From a phage, in NCBI GenBank assembly GCA_029942545.1, contig GCA_029942545.1_4114.3: DNA of 32,788 bases; one strand, written 5' to 3'. Position 1 is the first letter of the stretch; every line of letters starts with the position of its first letter. A program made the position numbers and the translations under genes. The notes under the pieces were generated by a model. It ran no database searches. It was not told the origin of the DNA and saw only the letters and a program-made list of their open reading frames with translations. Shown here piece after piece: positions 9,384-27,715 of this stretch.

Positions 9384-9389
9384 TTTATG

Positions 9390-10605: not shown

Positions 10606-10612
10606 ATTCTTT

Positions 10613-11841: not shown

Positions 11842-11847
11842 TTTAAT

Positions 11848-12996
11848 TCATTGTATAAATGACATATCAACTTCGGTATATCTTGTAGTGTACTGCCCAG
11901 AACTTCCACCCATTACTAGATTGGAAAAACCAGTATAAAATAACTTACCTTCATCTGTGAGAATCAAACTACCGATGTTATTCAGTACTAAACTGTAAGA
12001 ACTATTAAAATTTTCATAAGACTTGGTATAATAGAACTGATTTGTAAGATTACCAACACCCAATTGCCCACCAGTGTTAACCCCAGTTGCAAATATTGTA
12101 GTCCCAAATCTGAGAATATGTGAAGCCATATTACCAACACAACAGTATATATTCTGTACATCCGAATTCAATAAAGTTGGTGTTGTGTATTGCTTAAGTG
12201 TTGTGCCTGTGCCGAATTCATTACCATATGATAGTCCATATTGTGTACCACAAGCGTACAATTTATTATCATCTTTAATAAAAAATGTACTCTGATAACT
12301 TACATCGACATCTATAACATTAGTCTGTATTCTAACAACTCCAGTACTAGCAGTTTGATTGCCTGTCCCTAACTGATAGTAAGTGTTAATACCACAACCC
12401 CATAATGTATTATCTTCTTTTAGGTATATGTTACCAACAGCTTTTTTTACCGATGATATGGCTTCAATCTTAACAAAGGCGTTAAATGAATTTGTATTTG
12501 TGCCATTACCAAAAGATGATCTGGTTGATGTGCTGTTTGTTCCGCAGCAATATAAAGTACCATCAGTTGTTATCAAATTCACTTTAAGATCACTGTAACT
12601 ACTCATGTATTTTATATCAGAAACATTAATACCACTGGATGTTATCCATGAAGTACAATCTGTCCACGTGTTATAATATGCACCTGAACCAGAAAACGCA
12701 CTCGGACTTCCAGTTATAAACACTTTTCCAGTACCGTCTTCTTCATATAATTGACAACCACTACTGTTATTTTCCAAAAGGACTCTTTTAACATTAGTCG
12801 CACTAAGAATAAATTTACTCGACGAAACACCAGTTCCAGTACCCTGACTGACTGCCGCTGATGCATACAAATTTTTCGTGTATGTATCATGAAAATACAT
12901 AGCACTACCGCCGGAATATATTTTAAAACGTGTACTAGGATCAGGCGGGTTAGGTGCAATATTCCCGTACTTAATCATTCTAACAAAAGGTAACAT
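11848..12996 (-). CDS. RCC1-like beta-propeller repeat protein with MLPFVRMIKYGNIAP leader
   Basis: ORF track 11848..13014, start moved to MLPF ATG; motifs CGINTYYQLGTGNQT, GVNTGGQLGVGN; close paralog of 15137..16285. Confidence 0.85.
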   Translation of the reverse strand: MLPFVRMIKYGNIAPNPPDPSTRFKIYSGGSAMYFHDTYTKNLYASAAVSQGTGTGVSSSKFILSATNVKRVLLENNSSGCQLYEEDGTGKVFITGSPSAFSGSGAYYNTWTDCTSWITSSGINVSDIKYMSSYSDLKVNLITTDGTLYCCGTNSTSTRSSFGNGTNTNSFNAFVKIEAISSVKKAVGNIYLKEDNTLWGCGINTYYQLGTGNQTASTGVVRIQTNVIDVDVSYQSTFFIKDDNKLYACGTQYGLSYGNEFGTGTTLKQYTTPTLLNSDVQNIYCCVGNMASHILRFGTTIFATGVNTGGQLGVGNLTNQFYYTKSYENFNSSYSLVLNNIGSLILTDEGKLFYTGFSNLVMGGSSGQYTTRYTEVDMSFIQ

Positions 12997-13060
12997 ATTT
13001 CCCTCCTTATTCATTATACTATATTTAATACAAATAAGAATGCTAGTATCAAGTACTGGC
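12997..13060 (-). promoter_or_regulatory. terminator-promoter-RBS cassette
   Basis: Same cassette; hairpin variant GCCAGTACTTGATACTAGC. Confidence 0.6.
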
Positions 13061-13067
13061 CTATATT

Positions 13068-13805
13068 TTAGACTGAATTGTTAGGATAATATCTCCCACG
13101 TCCCCATATTATTCGCACAGCACCACCACCAGCAGCCGTATAAGAAAAATTATCCCATATACTACCACCACCACCATACATCTTACCAGCACCACCACTA
13201 CCAGCACCACCATTATATGAACCATCGTATCTACCGCCAATACCATTAGCACCTTGAACAATGATACCAGTACCACCACCCGTACCAATGAACGAGGTAT
13301 TATAGAATGCACCACCACCACCGCCGCCGCCAGCACCATTTTCACCAGTGATTGCATCTCCGTTACCACCTTTACCAGTGTAGCCACCAGCACCACCACC
13401 AATGACTGCACCACCACTTACACCAGCGTTGCCCCCATTACCACCACCATCATTAATAGCGTTAGCAGCTTTCCCACCTAGTCCACCAACCCTATATTCA
13501 CCAGTGAAGCTAACACATAGTTTTTCAGTTCCACGATATAAACCGTTTTCAACTGCTGTAGTAGTGTTGGGATGTGTAAGAGAAACACTTAAGTACTCAC
13601 CACTAGTAACCGGAATATTATTACGCCACGATAAGCCGCCGCCAGCACCACGTTGACCACCCGGCGAAATAACACATACTGATATTTCGGTAACGCCAGC
13701 AGGAACTGTAAATTGTGTTGTTCCTATTGTCGTGATTAATTGTTCACCATGTGGCTTATATTCAATTTCATTCCCGTACTTAATCATTCTTCCAAAAGGT
13801 AACAT
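13068..13805 (-). CDS. glycine-rich protein carrying the same MLPFGRMIKYGN leader
   Basis: ORF track; same N-terminal tag and upstream cassette as the RCC1 genes, but the body is FTVPAGVTEISVCVISPGG followed by long GGxGG low-complexity tracts; not RCC1. Confidence 0.8.
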   Translation of the reverse strand: MLPFGRMIKYGNEIEYKPHGEQLITTIGTTQFTVPAGVTEISVCVISPGGQRGAGGGLSWRNNIPVTSGEYLSVSLTHPNTTTAVENGLYRGTEKLCVSFTGEYRVGGLGGKAANAINDGGGNGGNAGVSGGAVIGGGAGGYTGKGGNGDAITGENGAGGGGGGGAFYNTSFIGTGGGTGIIVQGANGIGGRYDGSYNGGAGSGGAGKMYGGGGSIWDNFSYTAAGGGAVRIIWGRGRYYPNNSV

Positions 13806-13870
13806 AATTCCCTCCTTTATTCATTATAATATATTTAATACAAAAAGAAAAGCCAGTACTCAGTACTGGC
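13806..13870 (-). promoter_or_regulatory. terminator-promoter-RBS cassette
   Basis: Same cassette; perfect palindrome GCCAGTACT-g-AGTACTGGC. Confidence 0.65.
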
Positions 13871-13877
13871 TATTATA

Positions 13878-15065
13878 TTATAATTGTCGGGGTGTATCTA
13901 GTACATATCTAGTTGTACTAGGACCACCATCATCATAAGTTCCGGTTGAATATATATTTTTCATATCAGTTAGAAATGTACGATATGAACCTCTATATAT
14001 TTTTATTTTATCATACATAGAATATGTTATTTGTGTAGGCATTGGACATGCAGTAAACTTACCAACAGTTGCACTAGTACCAATACCCAATGAACCAGCA
14101 TAACTACTGGCATTTAAACCAGTTGCATATACACCAGTACTCGTAATTAGTATACTAGATTGTGGTGGGTATCCAGTATGAATTGAATACAAAGTACCGG
14201 GTGGTAACGTAGTACTGTTATTTCCTAAAACTCCATTAACAGAGCTAGATGTAGTGTTATTTCCCCATGCCCCATTATTAGCTAACCCACCGACAAGGAA
14301 CTGACGTGCTCCTGTATTTGGATTTTCAACTAAAGCACTTACTGCACCAGTTGAGCATCCTGTGTATTGTAACGTTTTTGTGTATGTTGTATTTGGTTGA
14401 TATAAAGTATATTCATTATATGAAGTCCATGTAGTCGCGGAACTTATACCGGATGTAACACCACCAATATATAAATTATTTTGTTTATCAAACAACAATA
14501 CACAGTTATTTGTTGACTGTATTTGTGCAATATCAACATTAGGTGTGACCGCTTTTACAAATGAACCATCGGTTATTTCATAAGTAGTTCCTGTACCATC
14601 TGCGAATTGTCTAGCACTGTTCCACCCTGTACTCCATATTGTATTATTATCCATTAACACAGTAAACCACGTAGTACCTCCATACATCTGTTTAATTGAA
14701 GTACTTGAACTTTGTGTGTACAAATTTTGAATATATTGGTTATAACTTAAAAACGTAGTAGTACTAGTTGATAAACCAATATGACTACCATATCCACAGT
14801 AATAATAATTTGAGTCATTGTCTTTTACTAATAAAGTTCCTTGTGTAAGCCAGCAATCGTTAACGTTTTCTCTAATTAATGTCCATGATTTTAATGCAGT
14901 GTTGTTTCCTCTACCGAATTTCCCAAAACTATTATTCCCACGTGCATATAGTTGACCATCCGTATACAGAACCACAACATCTAAATCAGTTGGGATTATT
15001 TTCTTAATTTGAAGTGGTACTGGGGCAATATTCCCATAATTCATCATTCTTGCAAAAGGTAACAT
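13878..15065 (-). CDS. RCC1-like beta-propeller repeat protein with MLPFARMMNYGNIAP leader
   Basis: ORF track; Gly/Ser/Thr/Asn-rich blades. Confidence 0.8.
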   Translation of the reverse strand: MLPFARMMNYGNIAPVPLQIKKIIPTDLDVVVLYTDGQLYARGNNSFGKFGRGNNTALKSWTLIRENVNDCWLTQGTLLVKDNDSNYYYCGYGSHIGLSTSTTTFLSYNQYIQNLYTQSSSTSIKQMYGGTTWFTVLMDNNTIWSTGWNSARQFADGTGTTYEITDGSFVKAVTPNVDIAQIQSTNNCVLLFDKQNNLYIGGVTSGISSATTWTSYNEYTLYQPNTTYTKTLQYTGCSTGAVSALVENPNTGARQFLVGGLANNGAWGNNTTSSSVNGVLGNNSTTLPPGTLYSIHTGYPPQSSILITSTGVYATGLNASSYAGSLGIGTSATVGKFTACPMPTQITYSMYDKIKIYRGSYRTFLTDMKNIYSTGTYDDGGPSTTRYVLDTPRQL

Positions 15066-15130
15066 AAATTCCTCCTTTATTCATTATACTATATTTAATA
15101 CAAATAAGAAAGCCAGTACAGAGTACTGGC
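15066..15130 (-). promoter_or_regulatory. terminator-promoter-RBS cassette
   Basis: Same cassette; hairpin GCCAGTACTCTGTACTGGC. Confidence 0.65.
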
Positions 15131-15136
15131 ATTAAA

Positions 15137-16285
15137 TCATTGTATAAATGACATATCAACTTCTGTATAACTAAGAATGTTTTGTCCAGCAATTCCCCCC
15201 ATTACTACCATAGCATACCCACAATAATATAATTGCTCAGTGTCCGTAAGTATAAGTGAACCAGATGGAGTGCGTACCAAATTACACGAACTATTAAACG
15301 AAGTATACGAAGGAGTATATGAGTACTGATTAATATTATTACCAACACCTAATTGACCAAATCCATTCGACCCAGATGCGTATAGAACTTCATCACCTTT
15401 AGCTATATGTGATGCCATGTTACTAACACACGTATATAGAGTATAAACTCCTGAACTCAATAATGTCGGAGTTTTGTATTGTATATCGGTAGATGAAGAA
15501 GTACCACCTGTGCCAAATTCGTTCCCGTATTGTGCACCGAACTGTTTACCACAAGCGTACAAATTATTATCCGATTTAATAAAAAATGTACTCTGATAAC
15601 TTACATCAAAATCTATAACATCTGAAGCAATCATCGTCACCCCAGTAATAGAAGTTTGATTACCTGTACCTAACTGATAGTAATAGTTAAAACCACAACC
15701 CCATAAAGTATTATCTTCTTTTAGGTATATGTTACCAACTGCCTTTTTAACCGAAGTTATAGTATCTACCCTTTTGAATGTGTTAAAAGAATTAATGTTT
15801 GTACCATCACCAAATGATGATAGGTTCGAGTTATTGTTAACTCCACAACAATACAACGTACCATCGTTTGTTATCAAATTCACCTTCATATCATTAAAAC
15901 TACTCATGTATTTTATATCAGAAACATTAATACCACCTGATGTTATCCACGTAGTACAGTCCGTCCACAAAGTTTTTGTATCAGTTACACCAGTGAATGC
16001 CTTCGTGTTACCAGTGATAAAAACTTTTCCAGTACCTTTCTCTTCATACATTTGACAACTACTACTGTTATCTTCCAATAGAACTCGTTTAACATTCTCT
16101 GCACAAAGAATAAATTTACTCGATGCTACACCTGTACCAGTACCCCAATTCGTCGCAGAAGATGCATACAACTTATTAGTATAAGTATCATGGAGATACA
16201 TAGAATCACTTGAATATATTTTAAAACGCCTATCCTTACCAGGGGCAATATTCCCATAATTCATCATTCTTGCAAAAGGTAACAT
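15137..16285 (-). CDS. RCC1-like beta-propeller repeat protein with MLPFARMMNYGNIAP leader
   Basis: ORF track; motif SGSNGFGQLGVGNN; long stretches near-identical to 11848..12996. Confidence 0.85.
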   Translation of the reverse strand: MLPFARMMNYGNIAPGKDRRFKIYSSDSMYLHDTYTNKLYASSATNWGTGTGVASSKFILCAENVKRVLLEDNSSSCQMYEEKGTGKVFITGNTKAFTGVTDTKTLWTDCTTWITSGGINVSDIKYMSSFNDMKVNLITNDGTLYCCGVNNNSNLSSFGDGTNINSFNTFKRVDTITSVKKAVGNIYLKEDNTLWGCGFNYYYQLGTGNQTSITGVTMIASDVIDFDVSYQSTFFIKSDNNLYACGKQFGAQYGNEFGTGGTSSSTDIQYKTPTLLSSGVYTLYTCVSNMASHIAKGDEVLYASGSNGFGQLGVGNNINQYSYTPSYTSFNSSCNLVRTPSGSLILTDTEQLYYCGYAMVVMGGIAGQNILSYTEVDMSFIQ

Positions 16286-16350
16286 ATTTCCCTCCTTTAT
16301 TCATTATACTATATTTAATACAAATAAGAAAGCCAGTACAGTGTACTGGC
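16286..16350 (-). promoter_or_regulatory. terminator-promoter-RBS cassette
   Basis: Same cassette; hairpin GCCAGTACACTGTACTGGC. Confidence 0.65.
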
Positions 16351-16356
16351 ATTATA

Positions 16357-17496
16357 TTATTTCCACGGTAGAAGTGAATCAGGAACCCTTGTTGGTACAG
16401 TAGTTGAAGACATTCCAGTAAGATTGGGTACACCACATGTGTATAAATTATTATATTCGTCAACTAACATCGTATAAGAATAGCTCTTACAAAAACTACT
16501 AAGATTACTACCTTCTAATGCAGTAAGATCCATTTCAGCGAATGATGTTATATACATATCAGTTGTACCAATACCACATTGACCATTTGAATTAAGGCCA
16601 CATGAAAATAACTTATTATTATTATTAATTATACAGGATGGTCCGGTAAGGTTTGTCCCAAGCTCACCCACCAACTCCACTTCTCCTTGGAATGATAAAT
16701 TTGGAATTAATGTACTCATTGGGGCTACTGACCTATTTCCTGTACCTGCTTGTCCATAGTCGTTAATAGATGCAACTTTAACATTACCATCATTAAGAAA
16801 TATATAAGAAGTTTCATTTGTATTGACTGCTTTAATTGCATTACTAATCGAAGTATCTTGTGTAAATGTGAGCAAGTTTTGTGTCGTCGTTCCTGATACA
16901 AACGTTCTACCTGCATACCAATATGAACCATCATTTAGTACTAATCCAGTACTATATATTGCACAACCAGCACTGATAACATTTTCTATTGTACTATAGG
17001 TGAATCGTGAAACGCTTGAAGTTGATCCATTCCCAAAAACACCACCAGTACCAGCACCACAGTAGAACCACTTTCCATTTTTTAAAAATACACGCATACA
17101 CGAAGATATCACAACACTATCAATATCATCTGCACTGACACCGAAATCAGTAAAGTTCTGTGTTATATCAACCCAAACGCCGTTAGTGTTTGAAGATAGT
17201 ATTGGAATAACAGTACGTCTACCAGTGTACCAAATAGTACCATCTTTCTTTATAGCAATTGTTCCTTGTACCCCACCCCAATATCGTGTAACATTTGAGT
17301 TGACAAGAGTCCATTCAGTTGAAGAGTCCAATGAACCATTACCACTTTGTCCATATGCTGAAGAACCAAACCAATATAGATTGCCATTTGTGTGTAAATA
17401 AAATTTGGCATCAGCAGAACATTGTAACCTGTTTTTAGGTAGAATCAGTTCAGGTGCGATATTCCCGTACTTAACCATTCTTGCAAAAGGTAACAT
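16357..17496 (-). CDS. RCC1-like beta-propeller repeat protein with MLPFARMVKYGNIAP leader
   Basis: ORF track; motifs SSAYGQSGNGS, GLNSNGQCGIGTT. Confidence 0.85.
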   Translation of the reverse strand: MLPFARMVKYGNIAPELILPKNRLQCSADAKFYLHTNGNLYWFGSSAYGQSGNGSLDSSTEWTLVNSNVTRYWGGVQGTIAIKKDGTIWYTGRRTVIPILSSNTNGVWVDITQNFTDFGVSADDIDSVVISSCMRVFLKNGKWFYCGAGTGGVFGNGSTSSVSRFTYSTIENVISAGCAIYSTGLVLNDGSYWYAGRTFVSGTTTQNLLTFTQDTSISNAIKAVNTNETSYIFLNDGNVKVASINDYGQAGTGNRSVAPMSTLIPNLSFQGEVELVGELGTNLTGPSCIINNNNKLFSCGLNSNGQCGIGTTDMYITSFAEMDLTALEGSNLSSFCKSYSYTMLVDEYNNLYTCGVPNLTGMSSTTVPTRVPDSLLPWK

Positions 17497-17561
17497 ATTT
17501 CCCTCCTTTATTCATTATACTATATTTAATACAAATAAGAAAGCCAGTACTCTGTACTGGC
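17497..17561 (-). promoter_or_regulatory. terminator-promoter-RBS cassette
   Basis: Same cassette; hairpin GCCAGTACAGAGTACTGGC. Confidence 0.65.
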
Positions 17562-17567
17562 ATTATG

Positions 17568-18677
17568 TTATTTTGGTAAATCAATTTTAGTAAAGACTGC
17601 AACATCCTCGATTGCACCTGGAATGGCGTAATACGATCCAGTACTATACACATCTCCATTTTTGGTTAATATCGATGTCAAACCATCACTAAAAAGAACA
17701 TCCCTAATCTCACTAACTTCAACGGGTAATTGTAAATTGGTAGCACTATATATAGCACCAGTTTGAGAATTGTTTAATCCCAAACCACGGTTCGCCCCAA
17801 CACCCTTCTGATATGTACTAGTAATTACCATTTGTGTAGCAGTATTTAAGGCAGGTGAATTCGTCATAAACAACGGAGAACTATTAGGCAAAGTACTTAC
17901 AGGAACGGCACGGAATGTAGTCGTGCCTGAACTAAGAAAGTTTGGAGTTTGACCACATACGAAATATGATGTACCATTATAGTAATTTAATGCATTACCA
18001 CCAATGGCTGCATCGATTACACCAGAACTACGCAATCCCCAAGTGTTAATTTGTGTTTGGTTCCCCGTACCATGCTGCCCACTACTATTCCATCCAGAAC
18101 TATATAGCTTATTATCTAATGTAAGATACATACTATCATTCGCATTGGTCATTACTTTACGAACGTTCGTAGCACATTGAGTTAATGTGTAAATTGATGA
18201 GGAACCAATACCCAAAGAACCACGATATCCATTATCTCCTGCACCATAGAGTACTGAATTAGTGCTAAGTACAAATATTAAACCATTTGTACATACAATA
18301 TTAGCAATTTCACTTACTGGTATAGCATTGGTAAACCAATTAGTTCTTTCAACTAATACAGTACTGTAAGAAGTAGTTGTAGAAGATGAGAACCAGTACG
18401 TTTGACCTGATGTCCATATCGTATTATCATTTTTAATAATAACAAGTGTACGATCACCCACGAAAAAATTAGAAACATCTGCACTTACTAATGTCCACGA
18501 AGACACCGTGTTGGTATTACCATTTCCAGATTCACCACCTTGATTTCTACCTATGTAATATAAATCATGTGAATCAGTCAATAAGAATTGGCCTTGGGTA
18601 GAAGCACCAACTTTAATTATTTTTTTAGGACCAGGGACAATATTTCCATACCTAATCATTCTTCCAAAAGGTAACAT
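17568..18677 (-). CDS. RCC1-like repeat protein with MLPFGRMIRYGNIVP leader
   Basis: ORF track 17568..18698, start moved to MLPF ATG; GGAGGG SD overlaps stop of upstream gene (coupled); motif GWNSSGQHGTGNQT. Confidence 0.8.
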   Translation of the reverse strand: MLPFGRMIRYGNIVPGPKKIIKVGASTQGQFLLTDSHDLYYIGRNQGGESGNGNTNTVSSWTLVSADVSNFFVGDRTLVIIKNDNTIWTSGQTYWFSSSTTTSYSTVLVERTNWFTNAIPVSEIANIVCTNGLIFVLSTNSVLYGAGDNGYRGSLGIGSSSIYTLTQCATNVRKVMTNANDSMYLTLDNKLYSSGWNSSGQHGTGNQTQINTWGLRSSGVIDAAIGGNALNYYNGTSYFVCGQTPNFLSSGTTTFRAVPVSTLPNSSPLFMTNSPALNTATQMVITSTYQKGVGANRGLGLNNSQTGAIYSATNLQLPVEVSEIRDVLFSDGLTSILTKNGDVYSTGSYYAIPGAIEDVAVFTKIDLPK

Positions 18678-18685
18678 ATTCCCTC

Positions 18686-19888
18686 CTATTGTTGCCATAA
18701 CTGCGTTGGCATTAATGTTAGTGTAGTAATACTATAAGTACCATTAGGTAATCTACCACCATTTCCATTCCAGCCACCACATGCATATAATTTATAATCT
18801 TTAGTAATTATTATGGTTCTGCTCCAATCTTTAGATGCCATAAGAACATTGTCATAACCACCACTTATTGCACTAAGATTAAAAATATTCCAAGTTCTAA
18901 CTAATGTATTAGTTCCATTACCTTCTTGACCATATGAGTTAGCACCACTACTTCTAACATATGGTGCGTATTGTGCCATAGGTGCACCAATTGATGCATT
19001 TCCCATATTACTTGGACAAATAAAAGTACTGTACTTACTTACATCAACCGTGACCGATGTGTTCCTAATTGGTGTTAGCTGATTTACCGATGTAGTCGTA
19101 CCATTACCAGCTTGTCCAGTACTGTTAACCCCGCTATAATATACAGACCCACCAGTAGTAAACCACCAAGTAACATCGTATGTAGTACTAATATGTTCTA
19201 CATTACTAATCACGAATTTGTTCAAATATACAACAGAACTACCACCACATCCACTTTCACCAAAGTTATCCTTACCACAAAACCATGCATCTTTATTTGA
19301 TTTGATATAGTGCGTTCCTTGTAATGAACATGCCATATGTGTAACTTCACCCATATTAGTCATAACTGTGAGTGTAGGGATGGAATTTTTATTACCAGAG
19401 CCACATTCACCATTAGTATTTCTTCCACACGCAATTACTCTACCATCGGTTAATAATATTCTAGTACTTTCACCTATATATACACTCTTGATCATATTAG
19501 CCATAACACCTATTTTATTAAATGCAACAGTAACATCAGTCCATGTTGTCAAATAACCATTAACAGGTGTTGCATCTCCATAATCAGAAAATGCAGCCAC
19601 AGACCCAGTGTAGTATATTTTATTATCCAAATCAATCATCAATGAACCTTGAACACCAAGCCAAAAGGCTGCACAGTTCCTTGCAAGTACTGTAAATGAC
19701 GAAACTGCTGCTGAATTCCCAAGACCAAATTGGTAAAAGTTATTACTACCATAACCATATAAAGTATTAGTTGGGTTATGGAGATACATACAGTTTGTAT
19801 AATGTTGTTGTAAAACATCTGAGAACTCTACAGGTTCTGGACCTGGTGCAATATTTGCGTACTTAACCATTCTTCCAAAAGGTAACAT
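18686..19888 (-). CDS. RCC1-like repeat protein with MLPFGRMVKYANIAP leader (first gene of array)
   Basis: ORF track 18686..19906, start moved to MLPF ATG; motifs CGRNTNGECGSGN, SGVNSTGQAGNGTT. Confidence 0.8.
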   Translation of the reverse strand: MLPFGRMVKYANIAPGPEPVEFSDVLQQHYTNCMYLHNPTNTLYGYGSNNFYQFGLGNSAAVSSFTVLARNCAAFWLGVQGSLMIDLDNKIYYTGSVAAFSDYGDATPVNGYLTTWTDVTVAFNKIGVMANMIKSVYIGESTRILLTDGRVIACGRNTNGECGSGNKNSIPTLTVMTNMGEVTHMACSLQGTHYIKSNKDAWFCGKDNFGESGCGGSSVVYLNKFVISNVEHISTTYDVTWWFTTGGSVYYSGVNSTGQAGNGTTTSVNQLTPIRNTSVTVDVSKYSTFICPSNMGNASIGAPMAQYAPYVRSSGANSYGQEGNGTNTLVRTWNIFNLSAISGGYDNVLMASKDWSRTIIITKDYKLYACGGWNGNGGRLPNGTYSITTLTLMPTQLWQQ

Positions 19889-19936
19889 ATTTCCCTCCTT
19901 ATTCATTATATCATATTTACCCCATAAAGAAAACCC
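19889..19936 (-). promoter_or_regulatory. promoter/RBS of first array gene (variant, no hairpin)
   Basis: Minus strand GATATAATGAATAAGGAGGGAAAT then ATG; shares a divergent intergenic region with the plus-strand promoter at 19937. Confidence 0.5.
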
Positions 19937-19965
19937 TTGACATCCTTTCAGTACTGGTGTACTAT
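19937..19965 (+). promoter_or_regulatory. sigma70-like promoter for the small-ORF array
   Basis: TTGACA (19937-19942), 17 nt, TACTAT (19960-19965); AAGGAG SD then ATG 19991; same TTGACA-17-TACTAT class as promoter at 1267. Confidence 0.6.
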
Positions 19966-19990
19966 AGAAGGAATATAAGGAGAACTACAC

Positions 19991-20218
19991 ATGACAAATA
20001 CTCTTAAGTACTACCTCAATACTCTAAATGAACTAGAGTACGGGGAATTTCTCTCGGATAGTTCGTGGCTAATTGAGCTAAAAAATTATAATAGTCCAGG
20101 ATGCACCCTTATGATGAACAATGCAATTGATACCCTCATTGTGAGTATTTTACACAGCAACATCTGCGGGGATAGCAATAAACAATTATCAAAAATCTTA
20201 GTACTGCTATCTATATGA
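19991..20218 (+). CDS. small protein, ~60-aa paralog family member
   Basis: ORF track; AAGGAG SD; family features (N-terminal YY, central C-rich motif, hydrophobic C-terminus). Confidence 0.7.
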   Translation: MTNTLKYYLNTLNELEYGEFLSDSSWLIELKNYNSPGCTLMMNNAIDTLIVSILHSNICGDSNKQLSKILVLLSI

Positions 20219-20418
20219 ACATTGAACAGTACTACATCGATGCACTACCAACAAAAGGTCTACGAGAAAGCCTACTGTATACACAAAATACTTTTATACA
20301 CTACAAACGTTGTCCTAAACTCCTGAACTCGTACAGGAGTAATATCATAAGAAATGCTTTACAAGGGGCAGAAAGTATGCAATACTATTATATCCTTGCC
20401 CTTTTAATCGAGTACTAA
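20215..20418 (+). CDS. small protein, paralog family member
   Basis: ORF track; 4-nt overlap with upstream gene; motifs MNIEQYYID, ends LALLIEY. Confidence 0.7.
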   Translation: MNIEQYYIDALPTKGLRESLLYTQNTFIHYKRCPKLLNSYRSNIIRNALQGAESMQYYYILALLIEY

Positions 20419-20419
20419 T

Positions 20420-20629
20420 ATGAATACTGAACATAAAGAATTCTACACCAAATACCTTAGCAACGAAGAACAATTGTTTCTAAGGAGTGTATCACCTGTA
20501 AGTACCAATACTCACTTCGGTAGAGATTGCTTTAATAATTGTATACGTAGTACTCTAGAAGCAATCGAATGCAATAACAAAAATATTATGTACTCAGGTT
20601 TAATAGGACTAATCTACTTCTATGAATAA
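20420..20629 (+). CDS. small protein, paralog family member
   Basis: ORF track; starts MNTEHKEFYTKYL; central FNNCIRS. Confidence 0.7.
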   Translation: MNTEHKEFYTKYLSNEEQLFLRSVSPVSTNTHFGRDCFNNCIRSTLEAIECNNKNIMYSGLIGLIYFYE

Positions 20630-20816
20630 TCATAAAGATTTCTATGGTAGTAAACTACACAAGCAAGACCAGCTATCATTCTCTTTAGCACCACCTATGA
20701 GAAAGGATAATCTATATTACAATTACGATTTCAGGATGGCGACACGTTATGCAATAGAACATCAGTTCCCTGAAACTAAGTACCGCTCTATCCTGAACCT
20801 CATCTTTAAGTTCTAA
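20622..20816 (+). CDS. small protein, paralog family member
   Basis: ORF track; starts MNNHKDFY; 8-nt overlap with upstream gene. Confidence 0.65.
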   Translation: MNNHKDFYGSKLHKQDQLSFSLAPPMRKDNLYYNYDFRMATRYAIEHQFPETKYRSILNLIFKF

Positions 20817-20826
20817 AAGGTGCTAT

Positions 20827-21036
20827 ATGAAAACTACAAACATTCATCAGTACTACATAGATATTCTCCCTAAAGATGTACAGTTCATACTTAAACAAGA
20901 ATTCAGTACTTTAAAAAAACTAAAAAGAACCGCACCTTCAGCAATCATCCAGCACCAAAAAAATGTCGTGCGTAATATACTACAAGGTACACCAGGGACC
21001 GAGTACTTTAATATAGTAAGGCTAATTACATTATAA
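20827..21036 (+). CDS. small protein, paralog family member
   Basis: ORF track; starts MKTTNIHQYYIDILP; resembles 20215..20418. Confidence 0.7.
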   Translation: MKTTNIHQYYIDILPKDVQFILKQEFSTLKKLKRTAPSAIIQHQKNVVRNILQGTPGTEYFNIVRLITL

Positions 21037-21221
21037 TGAATCATATAAGCTACTACTACCAACAACTATCCGACAGAGACAAGTACAGTCACAACTCCCA
21101 TGTGTGGTACTACAAACGCGGCAGTATAAGAGACAAACAACATTACTTCTGTATTTCTATTAAAGAAGCACTGACAACTAAGTACACGTACCGAGCAGTA
21201 ATTAAACTTATTGAAATGTAA
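21036..21221 (+). CDS. small protein, paralog family member
   Basis: ORF track; ends KYTYRAVIKLIEM, matching the next gene's KYTYREVMKLIAI. Confidence 0.7.
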   Translation: MNHISYYYQQLSDRDKYSHNSHVWYYKRGSIRDKQHYFCISIKEALTTKYTYRAVIKLIEM

Positions 21222-21229
21222 GGAAGAAA

Positions 21230-21412
21230 ATGAACATAGAATTCTATTTAACTAAACTACAACACGCCGAAAGATTCAACTTCAATAAGTTCAATATTTT
21301 CTACAATTGCGGGAACAAAAAAGATAAACACACCTTCCTATATGTCGTCACAAGAGATGCACAAAACGAAAAGTACACATACAGAGAAGTAATGAAACTA
21401 ATCGCTATTTAA
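21230..21412 (+). CDS. small protein, paralog family member
   Basis: ORF track; close paralog of 21036..21221. Confidence 0.7.
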   Translation: MNIEFYLTKLQHAERFNFNKFNIFYNCGNKKDKHTFLYVVTRDAQNEKYTYREVMKLIAI

Positions 21413-21420
21413 GGAATACT

Positions 21421-21600
21421 ATGCAACAATTCTATAGAGAACGTATAACCATAAAAGACCGTTTCATGTACGACACCTTCGTGAAGTACTACAAACTAGG
21501 AACAAAAAGTACTAAAAATATTAATCTCAATAGCTGCATTTATGCTGTACTAACACAAGATAATCCCTACAGGGAAATCCTCGCCCTGGCATCTATATAA
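21421..21600 (+). CDS. small protein (59 aa), probable paralog family member
   Basis: Not in ORF track (below 60 aa); hand-called ATG about 21421 after AAGGA SD, stop TAA about 21598-21600; fills the only gap in the array; starts MQQFYRERI. Confidence 0.5.
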   Translation: MQQFYRERITIKDRFMYDTFVKYYKLGTKSTKNINLNSCIYAVLTQDNPYREILALASI

Positions 21601-21610
21601 AGGAAACCAA

Positions 21611-22282
21611 ATGAAACTTAATGCACACAGCAAACAATACCTTAAGCACTTTAAGTACCTCAATAGTATTCAGGCAGAATCAGTTACATCTGCATATACG
21701 TATCACCCGAATGTACTAAAGAAACGAAATAAAAAGGAAAAATCCAGTACAAATGGAGTTAACGTATCAAAGAACCTTGAATTGTACATGAAGAAAAATA
21801 ATATAGCTGTTCATTATATGAATATCTATAATACTGATTTAAAAGTATTGAGTACTAATACGAGCACAAAGGTACTAAAGAACGCATCCTTCATCATCAA
21901 TATGCAGTTGGATAATACCCCGTGCACTTTAATGCTATACTTCGGGAATACATACTTCTTCGGGAATTGTAACACCTCCCACGATGTCAATACAGCACAA
22001 TTCCAAATGGGTGGCATATACTCTACTGATGCAGAAAAAGTACACGAGAATATGCACTTCTGGCAAGCACAACGTACAGAAGAAACTGATACAGTACTAC
22101 AATTCCTCAAAGAACTAGAACACAAAGAACTACAGGAAGAAGAACTATTCATGTACAGTACTGTAATCGATAATCCAGTACTCTATAAAAACGCGTACAA
22201 TCTGACAAAACATGTACAGGAACTTATCAGTACTAATAAGAAAATGCATCACCTCATTACGTATATTACAAACTATGTATAA
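21611..22282 (+). CDS. hypothetical protein (223 aa) embedded in the small-ORF array
   Basis: ORF track; AAGGAAACC SD-like; no family motifs. Confidence 0.7.
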   Translation: MKLNAHSKQYLKHFKYLNSIQAESVTSAYTYHPNVLKKRNKKEKSSTNGVNVSKNLELYMKKNNIAVHYMNIYNTDLKVLSTNTSTKVLKNASFIINMQLDNTPCTLMLYFGNTYFFGNCNTSHDVNTAQFQMGGIYSTDAEKVHENMHFWQAQRTEETDTVLQFLKELEHKELQEEELFMYSTVIDNPVLYKNAYNLTKHVQELISTNKKMHHLITYITNYV

Positions 22283-22457
22283 AGAATACTACAGGGAACA
22301 TCTCCCAATGCATCTCCAGCACCATATACCAACAGAACCAATAGGAATAAAAGATCACGCAAAGATAATGTTTCAACAATGTACTAAGTACACGCTCATA
22401 TACGATGATAATCCATATATGCTGTACTACGTAGTAATGTTAACATTCAGGTACTAA
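22275..22457 (+). CDS. small protein, paralog family member
   Basis: ORF track 22212..22457; start moved to internal ATG (MYKEYYREHLP) that matches family N-termini and overlaps the upstream stop. Confidence 0.7.
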   Translation: MYKEYYREHLPMHLQHHIPTEPIGIKDHAKIMFQQCTKYTLIYDDNPYMLYYVVMLTFRY

Positions 22458-22458
22458 C

Positions 22459-22644
22459 ATGTATAAAGAATACTACATAGAGAAACTCCCAATGTATCTC
22501 CAACACCTTGTACCAACAGAACCATTGGGTATAGAAAAAAACTACGAAAAAGACTACTTCATTCAGTGCACTAAATCCTCGATATATATTGAAGACTATA
22601 ATCGAGTACTGTATCACATCCTTTTACTAATATATAGGTACTAA
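22459..22644 (+). CDS. small protein, paralog family member
   Basis: ORF track; MYKEYYIEKLP ... LLLIYRY; 1-nt intergenic gap. Confidence 0.75.
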   Translation: MYKEYYIEKLPMYLQHLVPTEPLGIEKNYEKDYFIQCTKSSIYIEDYNRVLYHILLLIYRY

Positions 22645-22645
22645 T

Positions 22646-22828
22646 ATGCACAAAGAATACTACACACAATTTCTCCCCAGCATTTTTGAACACTACGCCA
22701 GATACAAAGTCCCCCTGGATAACGATTTGGCAGTACTGGGATTCAATAACTGCATAGAACGAAGTATAGAAAATAGTAGTAGTTATGACCAGCTATATAA
22801 CACTATCCTACTTATATTCAGGTACTAA
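22646..22828 (+). CDS. small protein, paralog family member
   Basis: ORF track; MHKEYYTQFLP ... ILLIFRY. Confidence 0.75.
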   Translation: MHKEYYTQFLPSIFEHYARYKVPLDNDLAVLGFNNCIERSIENSSSYDQLYNTILLIFRY

Positions 22829-22829
22829 C

Positions 22830-23018
22830 ATGCATAAAGAATACTACACAAAATATTTCCCAATGTACCTCAGAACTAATCTATTAGATAAACCTCGCGG
22901 TATCAATGCACAAAATGATAAAGTGTATTTTACTATGTGCACTAAAGCATGTATACTAGATTTTGACAGCTATCATCGAGTACTGTATCATACCCTGTAC
23001 CTAGCTTTCGTATTCTAA
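22830..23018 (+). CDS. small protein, paralog family member
   Basis: ORF track 22785..23018; start moved to ATG 22830 (MHKEYYTKYFP) matching family. Confidence 0.7.
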   Translation: MHKEYYTKYFPMYLRTNLLDKPRGINAQNDKVYFTMCTKACILDFDSYHRVLYHTLYLAFVF

Positions 23019-23027
23019 GAGAACAAT

Positions 23028-23213
23028 ATGCATAAAGAATTCTACTTAAGCCATCTGGATCTAAACTCCCAAATGCTTATACCACTAATCCCAATAGATA
23101 TCAAGGATAAGAAAAATACCGAACAATTCATTTACCATACACAGTGTGCGATCACCCCAAATTACATTCCATATGAATTGTACTACATTCTCGCCCTAAT
23201 ATATAGGTACTAA
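23028..23213 (+). CDS. small protein, paralog family member
   Basis: ORF track; MHKEFYLSHL ... LALIYRY. Confidence 0.75.
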   Translation: MHKEFYLSHLDLNSQMLIPLIPIDIKDKKNTEQFIYHTQCAITPNYIPYELYYILALIYRY

Positions 23214-23214
23214 T

Positions 23215-23400
23215 ATGCATAGAGAATACTACACACAATTTGTTAAAGGGAACTACAAACATGCCGTACCCAGAACCCCTTTAAATTCTCATGACCCAAG
23301 TACTATATTCTTGTTTAATGACGCAATACGTACAGTACTCAATACTAAAGATGAAGATGTGCAGTACGTATTCTTACTATTACTTATATACAGACACTAA
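23215..23400 (+). CDS. small protein, paralog family member
   Basis: ORF track; MHREYYTQFV ... LLLIYRH. Confidence 0.75.
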   Translation: MHREYYTQFVKGNYKHAVPRTPLNSHDPSTIFLFNDAIRTVLNTKDEDVQYVFLLLLIYRH

Positions 23401-23405
23401 CTAAT

Positions 23406-23588
23406 ATGAATAAAGAACATAAAGAATTCTATATAAGAAAACTAACATTCGTCCCCGTAAGAATATATAAAGAATGCGACCCAAGATTATACCTATGGCA
23501 CTTCAATGAGTGCATAAAAGATTCTATATACCCTAAGAACTATAAAGAACAATTGTGCTCAGTACTAACACTAGTACTATCATATTAA
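23406..23588 (+). CDS. small protein, paralog family member
   Basis: ORF track; MNKEHKEFYIRKL; central FNECIKDSIY. Confidence 0.7.
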   Translation: MNKEHKEFYIRKLTFVPVRIYKECDPRLYLWHFNECIKDSIYPKNYKEQLCSVLTLVLSY

Positions 23589-23603
23589 TTAATAGAGAAT
23601 ACT

Positions 23604-23795
23604 ATGTATAAAAACTTCTATATAAGTAAACTAAAAGAAAATGAACAAGTATGGATTAGATCTATAATTCCACTGGCATTTAATAGATATGCATTTAACA
23701 GATGTACCGAGATTGCTATAGACCCTTATAATATTAAAGAGAATGTACAGTATAATCAGTACTACTATATCTTAATGCTTATATATAGGAAGTAA
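23604..23795 (+). CDS. small protein, paralog family member (last of array)
   Basis: ORF track; MYKNFYISKL ... ILMLIYRK. Confidence 0.7.
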   Translation: MYKNFYISKLKENEQVWIRSIIPLAFNRYAFNRCTEIAIDPYNIKENVQYNQYYYILMLIYRK

Positions 23796-23909
23796 TTAAA
23801 CACAAGTAGACAGGGGAAGCTCCTAGTGAACAACCTTTATGTACAGGCGAATTGTTAAAATTCAGCCTGGACAAATGCGATCACTAGGATTCTCCCCAGG
23901 CTAAACCCC

Positions 23910-24000
23910 GTAATCATAGGTAGTCATAAGTAATCATATATAAACATTTAAGTAATCATTTATAATCACTGTAGTGATCAGTAGTGATCAGTAGTGAGTA
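23910..24000. repeat. direct repeats: GTAATCA-type heptamers and three tandem 10-bp units
   Basis: GTAATCAT occurs at least 3 times with a related TAATCAC, followed by AGTAGTGATC x3 in tandem (about 23970-24000). Confidence 0.6.
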
Positions 24001-24129
24001 CTAGAGTACAGGAATGTTCACGTTTAATCAAGAACGTAGCAGTACTGATATGTCACTAAGTAGGCAGAGGAAGTCTGCCGTACTTTTTAGTTTCCAAGCT
24101 CCTTTTCCATTTTTCAAATTACATCAAAT

Positions 24130-24164
24130 GTAATCAAAAGTAATCACGCAATGATTAGTACTGA
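24130..24164. repeat. GTAATCA repeats including an inverted pair
   Basis: GTAATCAAAAGTAATCACGCAATGATTAG: two direct copies plus inverted TAATCA/TGATTA around CGCAA. Confidence 0.55.
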
Positions 24165-24423
24165 ATTATTACTTTCACCTTAATTACAATTACCCTTTTA
24201 CCCGTCGGGGTAAAATTCCATTACCCCTTGAGGCTCCAGCAAAAAGTTGGTTAGTACTCCATCCTAAATCTCGATCCTAAAAATTTTGGAGTACCTATGA
24301 AATAAAAGTTGGATCTTCGAAAGTTGAAATTTACGTTGGGACGTTTATGATTTGTGGGATATAATGATGTTTGTAGACGGGTAGTTCTCAAGAATATCAG
24401 TACTGAATAATGAAAGAAAGTTA

Positions 24424-24451
24424 TTGACATTATGATTCAGTACTGTATAAT
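24424..24451 (+). promoter_or_regulatory. strong sigma70-like promoter in ORF-free region
   Basis: TTGACA (24424-24429), 16 nt containing CAGTACTG, TATAAT (24446-24451); no ORF of meaningful length downstream. Confidence 0.55.
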
Positions 24452-24457
24452 GTTCTA

Positions 24458-24656
24458 CATAGAGAGATGAGTTGCTGCCAACAATTCATTTACTCTACCT
24501 CCTGTCGTGAGACAGTACAGAAAAGATAGTTCCTCCTGTGGTGGTACATCTTTTTGAACCTCATATGAAAATCGTAATAACAGTACTGATATTAACAGAA
24601 TGGTGTCAGTACTGATTTTAATCTAAAGCATTATGCCACCAGCTTGTGCTGGTGGA
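24458..24656 (+). ncRNA. candidate small non-coding RNA (about 200 nt)
   Basis: Downstream of promoter 24424-24451; longest ORF about 20 aa; two CCTCCTGT(C/G)GTG copies (anti-SD-like CCUCCU); ends at 8-bp hairpin CCACCAGC-ttgt-GCTGGTGG (24636-24655) without a clear U-tract. Confidence 0.25.
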
Positions 24657-24796
24657 TTCCCTCTAACAGTATTCAGTACTACATGATAGTCTTCATCCTC
24701 CTAGGGTAACATAGTGAGGGCTATGATGGCAGTACTGAATACTCCTTTCACAAGATAGATCTATGGTATAGTACTGACGGATTTTGGGCGTAGTTA

Positions 24797-24968
24797 CCCT
24801 GGATGGATTTTGGACGTAGATATGTCTAGCCCTCCAGAAGTCTGGAAGTAAAGATGGCTATCCATCTAGACGGCTAGACGGCTAGATTTCTGGATGGCTG
24901 GATGGCTAGACGTTTGGACGGCTAAACGGCTAGATGGTTACACGTCTGGAAGTATAGACGGCTAAATC
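24797..24968. repeat. iteron-like array of short direct repeats
   Basis: Repeated 7-11 bp words: ACGGCTA(G/A)A x5, TGGATGG x3, TTGGACG x2, GTCTGGAAGTA x2, mostly in one orientation at roughly 9-11 bp spacing. Confidence 0.6.
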
Positions 24969-25130
24969 AAAATTTTATTTTGTTTTTTCCAATAGTTCCC
25001 CTACCGCGTGGGGATAGTTTCCCCGCAGTATCTGGAGTTAGATTTTTCTGAATCTGGAATCATTATCTTATAAACTGGGGGCAATGTCAACGGCCTGGAC
25101 GGATATTTTTAAAAATTTTTTCAGTACTGA

Positions 25131-25182
25131 ATTTTGGGCGTAACTATGCACCCGGTGGGCTTGAGTCTTTCTCGACTTGATG
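25131..25182 (+). repeat. ~50-nt repeated element, copy A
   Basis: ATTTTGGGCGTAACTATGCACCCGGTGGGCTTGAGTCTTTCTCGACTTGATG; shares ATTTTGGGCGTAA, GCACCC and CTTTCTCG..T.ATG blocks with copies at 25347 and 28955. Confidence 0.5.
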
Positions 25183-25245
25183 AAAATATTATAGCAGTAC
25201 TGAAAAAATAAAGCAATACCCTAAACGCAAAAAGTTTTAATTAAT

Positions 25246-25274
25246 TTGCTTGCCATCCTGGGGCGTACTATGAT
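25246..25274 (+). promoter_or_regulatory. possible promoter (TTGCTT -35-like, TATGAT -10)
   Basis: TTGCTT, 17 nt, TATGAT, upstream of repeated element copy B; weak match. Confidence 0.25.
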
Positions 25275-25346
25275 ACTATTATTCAGTACTGAGAAAGTGC
25301 TATGACCTGCTAAGGTGCGGGAGTGTATCCTTTTTAAATTATATGA

Positions 25347-25399
25347 ATTTTGGGCGTAATTCCGCACCCCCCAGGGGTATCCGCTTTCTCGCGTCTATG
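25347..25399 (+). repeat. ~50-nt repeated element, copy B
   Basis: ATTTTGGGCGTAATTCCGCACCCCCCAGGGGTATCCGCTTTCTCGCGTCTATG. Confidence 0.5.
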
Positions 25400-25657
25400 T
25401 AGTAATTATACGCTTTTTCGGTGCTGAGTCAATAGCTAAAAACAAAATAATTGAAAATAATTTAACGCGTTTAAACGGCCCGTAAAGCCCTGGTTAGCTG
25501 GTGGCGGTGCAAATGTATAGCTTAGGTGTATTAATGCGTTAGAAAGCGGCTGAGGCCGTTTTATGGGGTGTATAGTAGTGATTTGGTTGATTCAGTACTG
25601 AAAGATAGTTCCCCTATATAGAAAGAAAACTATTTTAAAAGTATTTGTAGAAAGTAC

Positions 25658-25720
25658 TTGCAAAGTATTGGGAAAGGTGTAGAATGTTTTACATCGAGAC
25701 GGGGGATACGCTCCCGACTC
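25658..25720 (+). promoter_or_regulatory. early-type promoter plus downstream stem-loop (PeSL-like)
   Basis: AGTACTTGCAA, 16 nt, TAGAAT, GTTTTACATC, then GGGGGATACGCTCCC hairpin; gene 25743 follows. Confidence 0.55.
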
Positions 25721-25742
25721 ACTTTTAAAAGAGATTAAAACG

Positions 25743-26105
25743 ATGGCGACTCAAATCAATACTATCATGCTTAACCTGGTTTCTTTCCGTGAAGAGATGA
25801 AAGATCTTCCCGCTGAGACTGTACGGATTCACATTGCAGCTTATCGGGAATTGATTGCAATGTTACCGCTTAAGCGTGAACAGTATGCAGCTACTGCAAT
25901 GCTGGACGCAATGATACATAAGATGATCCAGACTGATTTAACGATGGCTTATCAGTACATGGGCGAAATGTTTGCAGTGTATAGCAAGCCAGTACCAGGA
26001 ATGGAAAGTACAGAAGTATTGCACGGCTTAAACTTAAAACAAGATGCATGGGATAATATGCCTCGTTTCCTGGTATGGGCTGATAGTGGAAAGATTTACG
26101 AATAA
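25743..26105 (+). CDS. hypothetical protein (120 aa)
   Basis: ORF track; downstream of promoter/stem-loop; GC-richer codon choice. Confidence 0.7.
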   Translation: MATQINTIMLNLVSFREEMKDLPAETVRIHIAAYRELIAMLPLKREQYAATAMLDAMIHKMIQTDLTMAYQYMGEMFAVYSKPVPGMESTEVLHGLNLKQDAWDNMPRFLVWADSGKIYE

Positions 26106-26119
26106 GTTTAATAAAGTAC

Positions 26120-26178
26120 TTGCAAACTAAGTTTAAAAGCGTATAATGTTTTACATCAGGTGGGGAATAGTTCCCCAC
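26120..26178 (+). promoter_or_regulatory. early-type promoter plus stem-loop (PeSL-like)
   Basis: TTGCAA (26120-26125), 16 nt, TATAAT (26142-26147), GTTTTACATC, hairpin GTGGGGAATAGTTCCCCAC. Confidence 0.6.
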
Positions 26179-26198
26179 TATATAAGAGGATTAAAAAA

Positions 26199-26438
26199 AT
26201 GGCTAAATCAAAAATGTTCTTAGGTCACAAAAACAAAACTCAATGGAATGTAAGCCTTTGGATTAATAACGACGAATCATTATACCGGTTGGCCCAGGAC
26301 TTTATTGCCGCTAACACTAATCGTAATGATGCGGCCCGTCATATGATGCTATTTTTAGAACAGACTGGACAAGATAAAACACCGGACGGCTTTAAGTATA
26401 GCACTACTGCGATCCGTGCGGCGATGGTTGGAATGTAA
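26199..26438 (+). CDS. hypothetical protein (79 aa)
   Basis: ORF track 26160..26438; start moved to ATG 26199 (MAKSKMF) after AGAGGA SD; the longer ORF would begin inside the 5' stem-loop. Confidence 0.7.
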   Translation: MAKSKMFLGHKNKTQWNVSLWINNDESLYRLAQDFIAANTNRNDAARHMMLFLEQTGQDKTPDGFKYSTTAIRAAMVGM

Positions 26439-26459
26439 GAGAATAGATTAAAAGTACTA

Positions 26460-26484
26460 TTGCACGGTGATAGTACTTTATAAT
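26460..26484 (+). promoter_or_regulatory. possible promoter
   Basis: AGTACTATTGCAC ... TTTATAAT upstream of gene 26521; spacer about 13 nt for TTGCAC, so register is uncertain. Confidence 0.3.
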
Positions 26485-26520
26485 AGATTTCTTTTATACA
26501 ACAACGATAGGGGTAACAGC

Positions 26521-27698: not shown

Positions 27699-27715
27699 TT
27701 CAGTACTGAATCAAT

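Follow-up and report, generated by a model that had tools for sequence, protein, structure and literature searches.

Phased GTAATCA repeats on both sides of the predicted left chromosome end of an Asteriusvirus jumbo coliphage

The window, a 32,788-nt stretch of phage DNA (contig GCA_029942545.1_4114.3 of GenBank assembly GCA_029942545.1), carries a cluster of GTAATCA heptamers together with a tandemly repeated 10-mer, and homology to phages with determined termini places the left physical end of the chromosome within this cluster, at the edge of a long direct terminal repeat (DTR). The repeats are non-random, heptamers and 10-mer share a 10-bp period as parts of a single array, and the repeat motif is restricted to the left end. 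We favour reading them as candidate sites at which the DNA-packaging machinery docks; specifically, we propose, at a probability of roughly 45%, that they are phased protein-binding or DNA-bending sites that help to position left-end formation and packaging. An earlier note, made from the letters of the sequence, had taken the repeats for candidate protein-binding sites, which seems a reasonable reading of them, and had overlooked their context, as they appear to flank a chromosome end (the DTR boundary at 24058|24059).

A single phased array

Exact copies of GTAATCA occur five times on the plus strand within 237 bp (at 23910, 23930, 23952, 24130 and 24140), four of them followed by T or C and the one at 24130 by A, so that the earlier count of at least six GTAATCA(T/C) in about 250 bp does not hold as worded and is reached only by way of the TAATCA core or of one-mismatch copies. 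The core has seven direct copies (23911, 23931, 23953, 23963, 24025, 24131, 24141) and an inverted TGATTA at 24152, while the one-mismatch copies GTAGTCA (23920) and ATAATCA (23962) occupy gaps in the 10-bp register. The inverted pair TAATCA-cgcaa-TGATTA is present as described, at 24141–24157. Enrichment over base composition, which had been suggested as a check, gives a divided answer. Window-wide, the heptamer count is at expectation (7 found versus 7.5 expected, only two copies lying outside the cluster), but its clustering goes beyond all of 500 Markov-1 simulations: against five observed copies within 240 bp, the largest simulated cluster held one or two copies in 497 simulations, three in two and four in one. 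Similarly, eight copies of the TAATCA/TGATTA core lie within 260 bp, where no simulation held more than five. No further GTAATCA cluster was found in the 32.8-kb window or in 56 kb of the related phage CRJP21.

The periodicity joins the heptamers to the 10-mer. Self-identity of 23905–24005 at a lag of 10 nt is 0.60, far above the 0.28 ± 0.044 of 2000 shuffles, and Tandem Repeats Finder (TRF) reports period-10 arrays at 23910–23959 and 23971–23997. The tandem 10-mer, said earlier to be repeated three times, is indeed tandem, and TRF gives it 2.7 copies with 100% matches: GTAGTGATCA is exact at 23971 and 23981 and is then followed by GTAGTGAGTA (in the register used in the earlier note, TGTAGTGATC / AGTAGTGATC / AGTAGTGAGT). 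Because the lag-10 self-identity stands so far above the shuffles, and because GTGATCA is a one-mismatch variant of GTAATCA placed in a common 10-bp register, heptamers and decamers are one array and not the two separate things for which they had been taken. This family does differ, as had been claimed, from the ‘iterons’ reported at 24797–24968, which are an 8-bp array of the CTAGACGG type at 24866–24964.

The chromosome end inside the array

Judging by similarity, the window comes from an Asteriusvirus jumbo coliphage of the 121Q/PBECO4 group. Matches to the 2.1 kb around the repeats came from 42 phage records, in 35 of which the aligned part covers 80% or more of this segment at 90–95% identity; nearly all of the 42 belong to Asteriusvirus jumbo coliphages such as PBECO4, 121Q and G17, whose genomes measure 348–386 kb; the closest relative over 23796–24330 is 121Q, at 98.7% identity. 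Nine records bearing a DTR (CRJP21, G17, BF17, vB_Ec-M-J, E9.1, fEgEco12, ELP-22, WPEC3 and WPEC5), deposited separately by laboratories in at least six countries, start, or in reverse complement end, exactly at window position 24059, and each aligns with the window from there onward. At least four of these nine have termini with published PhageTerm analyses, one with restriction digests as well: fEgEco12 was analysed by both approaches and has a DTR of 20,993 bp (PMC13070987), the termini of ELP-22, E9.1 and BF17 were published with PhageTerm, and those of G17 were taken from read coverage (PMC6563267). Likewise, Sharanji has a PhageTerm-derived DTR of 20,668 bp. In CRJP21, whose record opens with agtaggcagaggaagtctgcc, gp_1 (1738–2100) recurs as gp_584 (347887–348249), giving a DTR of 20,152 bp. 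Since nine homologous records with determined termini have an end at 24059, the left chromosome end falls inside the repeat region, and we place the window's own end, by this homology, between 24058 and 24059 (Table 1), where 24 of 25 bases match 121Q on each side of the cut.

A region of the pac or cos type contains the site at which virion DNA ends are generated and conserved short repeats that flank the cut. Homology to the nine records locates the former here, and the latter are found at −149 to −59 and at +72 to +99, with the core kept in the 13 genomes compared below and several copies dispensable. The region is thus probably a new member of this kind, a packaging recognition region with repeats flanking the cut, and an unusual one in its long exact DTR, its terminal palindrome and the lack of a known small terminase. 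The termini themselves are already in databases and DTRs of ~20 kb have been published, so that the significance of the array lies in its position bracketing the left end; the published terminus reports consulted on Asteriusvirus and its relatives give coordinates only and do not describe sequence features at the ends. Little is understood of how DNA sequence defines the ends of long direct terminal repeats, to our knowledge in T5 and SPO1 as well. We note that in many Asteriusvirus deposits (UE-S1 ON568341, PBECO4, 121Q and other records of 348–358 kb) the assembly is collapsed or permuted, with the true left end at an internal position, for example at about 135.4 kb of the 121Q record. According to the fEgEco12 study (PMC13070987), the 8.3-kb DTR annotated for UE-S1 also appears to be mis-assigned.

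The repeats open a stretch of ~1.95 kb (23796–25742) without any open reading frame (ORF) of 60 aa or more. A coding explanation was considered for the sole sizeable ORF near the end (24251–24430, minus strand, 59 aa), which overlaps the 43-nt element of Table 1, and was rejected because the frame is not kept in relatives, being broken or frame-shifted in 121Q, UE-S1, ph0011, Turkey5 and CMSTMSU. A search of both strands of 23500–26000 against Rfam gave no match even at a permissive threshold (E ≤ 1), and no known RNA family therefore accounts for the region.

Table 1. Features around the predicted left chromosome end (window coordinates; signed positions are relative to the cut, +1 being the first base of the chromosome).
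Feature	Position	Strand	Sequence and remarks
Upstream heptamer array	23910–23968	+	GTAATCA 23910, GTAGTCA 23920, GTAATCA 23930, GTAATCA 23952, ATAATCA 23962; spacing 10 or 22 bp; −149 to −97
Tandem decamer	23971–24000	+	GTAGTGATCA twice, then GTAGTGAGTA; TGAT-decamer array; −88 to −59
Downstream heptamer group in DTR	24130–24157	+	GTAATCA +72, GTAATCA +82, inverted TGATTA +94; the last two form TAATCA-N5-TGATTA
Left chromosome end (inferred)	24058–24059		...CACTA|AGTAGGCAGAGG...; left edge of a direct terminal repeat of ~20–21 kb
Terminal palindrome	24059–24084	+	AGTAGGCAG-aggaagt-CTGCCGTACT; +1 to +26; its base 1 would be the first base of the chromosome
Inverted repeat AGCCTGG...CCAGGCT	23864–23902	+	arms of 7 bp, spacer of 25 nt; immediately precedes the heptamer array; kept in most of the 13 genomes
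CAGTACTG palindrome	24040–24047		copy of a genome-wide promoter-associated motif; 12–19 nt upstream of the cut
TAGTACTG	24156–24163		variant of the promoter-associated motif; overlaps the inverted TGATTA arm
43-nt element	24253–24295	+	AGTACTCC ATCCTAAATCTCGATCCTAAAAATTTT GGAGTACC, also written AGTACTCC-N27-GGAGTACC; noted together with the adjoining 24234–24250

Conservation among relatives and the right end

In an alignment of the window with 12 relatives (13 genomes), a comparison of the kind proposed in the earlier note, the core repeats are kept throughout and the copy number of the 10-mer is not. Inside the DTR, positions +1 to about +130 are almost invariant. The trio of motifs at +72, +82 and +94 stands at fixed positions in 11 of the 13 genomes, CMSTMSU being shifted by a 5-nt deletion and UE-S1 carrying one substitution in the first copy, and in TAATCA-N5-TGATTA the arms are constant while the spacer varies (cgcaa, cgtaa, cataa, cacaa). 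The terminal palindrome is invariant in all 13 genomes; as DNA it folds at −6.9 kcal/mol (z −4.3) with nt 1 paired to nt 26, and it is terminator-like, being followed by a T run and called by a terminator scan. Its role may lie in setting the position of the cut or in priming the duplication of the DTR. Upstream of the cut, the triplet GTAATCA/GTAGTCA/GTAATCA is conserved, and the best-conserved stretch is TCATAAGTAATCATATATAAACATTT (23923–23948, 26 nt), which has one variable column and is centred on the GTAATCA at 23930.

Between this triplet and the cut the genomes fall into two alleles. Type A (the window, 121Q, UE-S1, ph0011, Turkey5 and CMSTMSU) has GTAATCA, ATAATCA and (TGATCAGTAG)n, and heptamer copies 4 and 5 (23952 and 23962) are confined to it, while type B (CRJP21, PBECO4, UB, SHEFM2K, G17, slurp01 and fEgEco12) has AGAATCA and then TGATTATATA, TGATTCAGTAC and TGATTAGTATAG at about −84, −74 and −63. 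Decamers starting with TGAT are kept in both alleles, at about −85, −75 and −65, and the tandem 10-mer is by this alignment a variable-number repeat within a conserved phased array. Insertions are also seen upstream of the cut: four genomes carry one of 29 nt, and slurp01 has a unit of ~60 nt containing CAGTACTGATTAG in triplicate. More generally, structural instability marks the segment directly preceding the left end in slurp01, UE-S1, ph0011 and the IMG/VR contig L031.

The repeats might, then, be non-functional products of slippage or recombination, a minisatellite-like 10-bp array in a hypervariable junction beside the DTR. This is unlikely, in our view, as neutrality would not lead one to expect a near-invariant 26-nt stretch around 23930, a trio fixed at +72/+82/+94, TGAT decamers in the same register in both alleles, or a motif found on both sides of the cut and nowhere else. 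It nevertheless accommodates the change from two to three decamers among close relatives, the existence of two very different alleles, the ~60-nt triplication in slurp01 and a 30-nt insertion that splits one heptamer copy. An unrelated decamer is also expanded at the equivalent place in L031, and a slippage-prone hotspot could be an alternative source of the tandem decamers in particular.

At the other end of the DTR the motif is missing: in CRJP21 and vB_Ec-M-J the 300 bp on either side of the right boundary contain neither TAATCA nor TGATTA, and the right end of the Klebsiella phage fENko-Kae01 has a single core match at +143. The right boundary reads ...GGGTAACCT|TAGCGACTTCG in CRJP21 and ...GGGTAACCT|TTAGCGAC in vB_Ec-M-J, the two being the same up to the cut and differing by one T just after it. 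The immediate context of this boundary, ...CCT|TAGC..., is common across genera (CRJP21 at 20152, vB_Ec-M-J and fENko-Kae01); before it stand a conserved GATTGGACTATG and an inverted repeat, GTCAAG...CTTGAC, and a sigma-70-like promoter comes after it.

Candidate roles of the repeats and related systems

Under the packaging proposal, a cut between 24058 and 24059 in replicating concatemers would create the left virion end, and to the right of it would begin the ~20-kb DTR, full of small early genes. The upstream phased array (−149 to −59) and the downstream trio, which lies beyond the terminal palindrome, would bracket this cut; the phased repeats would bind, or bend for, a terminase or an accessory DNA-recognition subunit, which in turn would position the end-forming nuclease, and the tandem 10-mer would be the slippage-expanded, strain-variable portion of the array. 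From the location of the end and the clustering, phasing, conservation pattern and left-end restriction of the repeats, we infer that protein binds here, that the binder is a component of the packaging apparatus and that the repeats have a part in cutting.

Several observations weigh against this proposal. First, a small terminase gene has not been recognised in the genus (BF17 paper). Second, indels have left the upstream array at varying distances from the cut, between −129 and −279, which argues against an array that positions the cut precisely, and the right end is cut equally precisely without the GTAATCA motif. Third, individual copies seem dispensable, because the first GTAATCA is split by a 30-nt hairpin insertion in UE-S1 and ph0011, both viable phages, and because decamer copy number varies, three units being present only in the window and 121Q and two in UE-S1, ph0011, Turkey5 and CMSTMSU. 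Fourth, conservation of the downstream trio is uninformative, since all of +1 to +130 is nearly invariant, and the trio overlaps a promoter-type AGTACTG motif, such that a transcriptional role is equally compatible with its sequence.

On the packaging proposal, the repeats would be counterparts of those that border the cut in P1 pac, SPP1 pac or lambda cosB. In lambda cosB (R sites and an IHF site) and in SPP1 pacL/pacC/pacR, the small terminase binds phased short sites next to or around the nick, and DNA bending helps to position the nuclease; lambda produces cohesive ends and SPP1 a headful series, both with an identified small terminase. The window differs from both in belonging to a genus without a recognised small terminase, in its long exact DTR and in having the motif at one end only. 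Phage T7 has exact terminal repeats of 160 bp and arrays of ~7-bp repeats near the boundaries, with both cuts in one junction; a palindrome at its boundary has been invoked in repeat duplication (hairpin-primed models), and strong promoters for host RNA polymerase lie at its left end. Phages of the window's type have an exact DTR with short-repeat arrays at the left boundary, which may make the T7 junction comparable; their cuts are ~20 kb apart with different flanks, and the right boundary lacks arrays.

The P1 pac site, of 161 bp with seven TGATCA/G hexamers (PMC10028697), is similar in that short repeats bracket its packaging cut over some 160–250 bp, and TGATCA occurs twice in the window decamers (23975 and 23985). 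However, P1 packages by headful, with permuted and imprecise downstream ends and Dam-regulated GATC hexamers, whereas the window has a base-exact end and a 20-kb DTR, its common unit GTAATCA contains no GATC, and the two TGATCA copies are missing from most relatives. We therefore rejected a P1-type Dam-hexamer pac, as there are only two TGATCA copies, both upstream of the cut and absent from type B relatives; from 23879 to 24272 there are only three GATC sites. We also rejected a headful mechanism, which would give permuted ends, in view of the same left end in nine records, two right ends that agree up to the cut and the DTR class assigned by PhageTerm.

Other Rak2-like genera offer a closer comparison. 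The 43-nt element is the only sequence near the end that distant blastn searches recognise in them, at 93% identity at positions 86–128 of fENko-Kae01 and of the Salmonella phage Munch and at 82% at positions 54–120 of XbC2; it always lies beside the left end, within about 50–240 nt. Like the window, the left ends of fENko-Kae01, Munch and L031 have a DTR of ~20 kb, a palindrome from nt 1, a paired short motif at 10-bp spacing and the 43-nt element, with upstream tandem decamers in one member, but AAAGTACT and GCTACGGTAA take the places of GTAATCA and GTAGTGATCA. Specifically, fENko-Kae01, with a PhageTerm-annotated DTR of 19,736 bp, has the end ...CCGCTA|TATCTTCT-ctgtata-AGAAGATA, a palindrome from nt 1, and both it and Munch have such a terminal palindrome and then AAAGTACT twice at 10-bp spacing; no TAATCA/TGATTA cluster occurs at either left end. 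Hallingskeid and L031 have analogous palindromes of different sequence at their predicted ends, while XbC2 has no palindrome starting at nt 1, and L031 carries (GCTACGGTAA)x3 as tandem decamers about 40–75 nt upstream of its predicted end. A layout of phased short repeats, cut, terminal palindrome, paired short repeats and 43-nt element therefore seems to recur with different sequences, as expected if the repeats are recognition sites co-evolving with a genus-specific protein. We note in addition that fENko-Kae01 and Munch have a second, weaker copy (75%) of the 43-nt element 69 nt downstream, that AGTAGTGATC has AGTAG in common with the first five bases of the chromosome while the L031 decamer has no such relationship, and that IMG/VR, when scanned for the terminal palindrome and for the 43-nt element, yielded nothing beyond 121Q, L031 and two coincidental-looking matches in coding-looking sequence.

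More speculatively, Rak2-like phages may share a hitherto undescribed left-end module that specifies the exact ends of ~20-kb DTRs without a recognisable small terminase, consisting of genus-specific phased repeats on both sides of the cut, the palindrome at nt 1 and the cross-genus 43-nt element. The cut would be set by the palindrome, perhaps in a step that is structure-specific or primed by fold-back, and recognition particular to each genus would come from the repeats. We put this forward as a doubtful reading.

A transcriptional role has to be weighed here, in which a phage or host transcription factor would bind the heptamers, as operators or activator sites, to control early left-end transcription at the first AGTACTG motifs (24040 and 24156), and their closeness to the chromosome end would be incidental. 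In the left ~1.7 kb of the DTR no ORF is conserved and promoter-type sites are dense, including a perfect TTGACA-N16-TATAAT at 24424–24451. Further, the inverted TGATTA arm abuts TAGTACTG at 24156, and sites for dimeric regulators are typically inverted repeats whose arms stay constant while the spacer varies. AGTACTG is followed by AATCA at 27702, 28928, 29442 and 30168, and TGATTC precedes CAGTACTG at 24431 and 25590; because AATCA/TGATT recurs in this way beside promoter motifs, it can be read as the outer flank of the promoter palindrome. However, none of the ~60 other AGTACTG sites of the window has a GTAATCA cluster, the upstream array is external to the DTR and about 40–130 nt from the nearest AGTACTG, and no recognisable −35/−10 pair is found at either repeat group. 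Among relatives, moreover, the nearest AGTACTG shifts or is lost relative to the array, and its distance to the cut is not fixed, CAGTACTG lying 29 nt further upstream in SHEFM2K, UE-S1, fEgEco12 and Turkey5 and being absent in CMSTMSU. On balance we consider it improbable that the heptamers serve as operators of this kind.

The AGTACTG palindrome itself has the appearance of an early-promoter or operator element used throughout the genus. The window holds 33 copies of CAGTACTG where 0.55 would be expected, and AGTACT is present 143 times where the expectation is about 11. At several sites AGTACTG forms the spacer of consensus sigma-70 promoters (TTGACA or CTTGCA, N9–11, AGTACTG, TATAAT), as in the TTGACA-N9-AGTACTG-TATAAT of 24424–24451; other examples of sites of this type lie at 28608, 30612, 32328 and 32652, and elsewhere the motif takes the form TCAGTACTGA(A/T) without a clear −35. 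The core of the motif may also resemble the Escherichia coli SlmA site, GTGAGTACTCAC, and GTGAGTACT is present at 23994.

It is less plausible still that the repeats belong to a replication origin or to an end-binding or injection function (initiator sites, protection or anchoring of the first-injected end, or hairpin-primed duplication of the DTR). The region is AT-rich (GC 0.32–0.33), the terminal palindrome starts at nt 1, a second array with an 8-bp period (24866–24964) and an adjoining match to the IHF consensus at 24965 lie ~800 bp inside the end, and GC skew changes sign at about 24,000, the minimum of cumulative skew. That change, however, coincides with a shift in gene content and strand and is hence not specific, the flanking ORFs give no initiator-type family match, no DnaA box occurs in 23000–26500, and the units are of 7–10 nt and not iteron-sized (about 17–22 bp). 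Replication-origin iterons proper were rejected on the unit length and on the missing DnaA box and initiator-type ORF, AT-richness being the only such feature present.

The skew and the flanking genes can be described more fully. Over 1–32000, GC skew runs at about −0.13 to −0.22 across 5000–24000 and then at +0.07 to +0.17 from 24001; its cumulative minimum coincides with the chromosome end (~24,000), and AT skew is strongly positive over 20000–24000. Leftward of the end, 20827–23795 holds a plus-strand run of tandem ORFs of ~60 aa, A-rich, with negative GC skew and unlike the DTR genes to the right; the run stops 265 nt short of the chromosome end, and its last ORF matches phrog_11711 (function unknown). 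Further left, on the minus strand, 5674–19906 contains about a dozen paralogous ORFs of 245–406 aa, and both of the two that were scanned have RCC1-like repeats (phrog_4219, ‘regulator of chromosome condensation’); a near-identical terminator cassette (ATACTATATTTAATACAAAAAGAAATGCCAGTATCAAGTACTGGC on the plus strand) follows most of these paralogs.

Inside the DTR, the 8-bp-period array consists of about 12 copies of CTAGACGG/CTGGATGG, and the IHF-consensus match directly after it (24965–24977, AATCAAAATTTTA) is the only one in the window and lies outside the GTAATCA region. Four copies of (G/T)GA(A/T)TTTTGG(G/A)CGTA occur within 24776–24822, 25126–25146 and 25342–25362, the first two 26 nt apart just before the 8-bp array and the last two after or near a AGTACTGA motif and before a GC-rich hairpin; they may be leader or small-RNA units that recur in this ORF-free stretch at the left end.

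If the repeats were merely promoter operators or products of slippage, the array would be a local curiosity. If instead the repeats and the palindrome direct end formation, then a segment of ~350 bp would be the compact packaging signal of a 350-kb phage. Such a signal would help in understanding how the 20-kb repeat is duplicated and in correctly orienting and annotating collapsed or permuted assemblies, and it would be useful for transducing or engineered jumbo-phage vectors.

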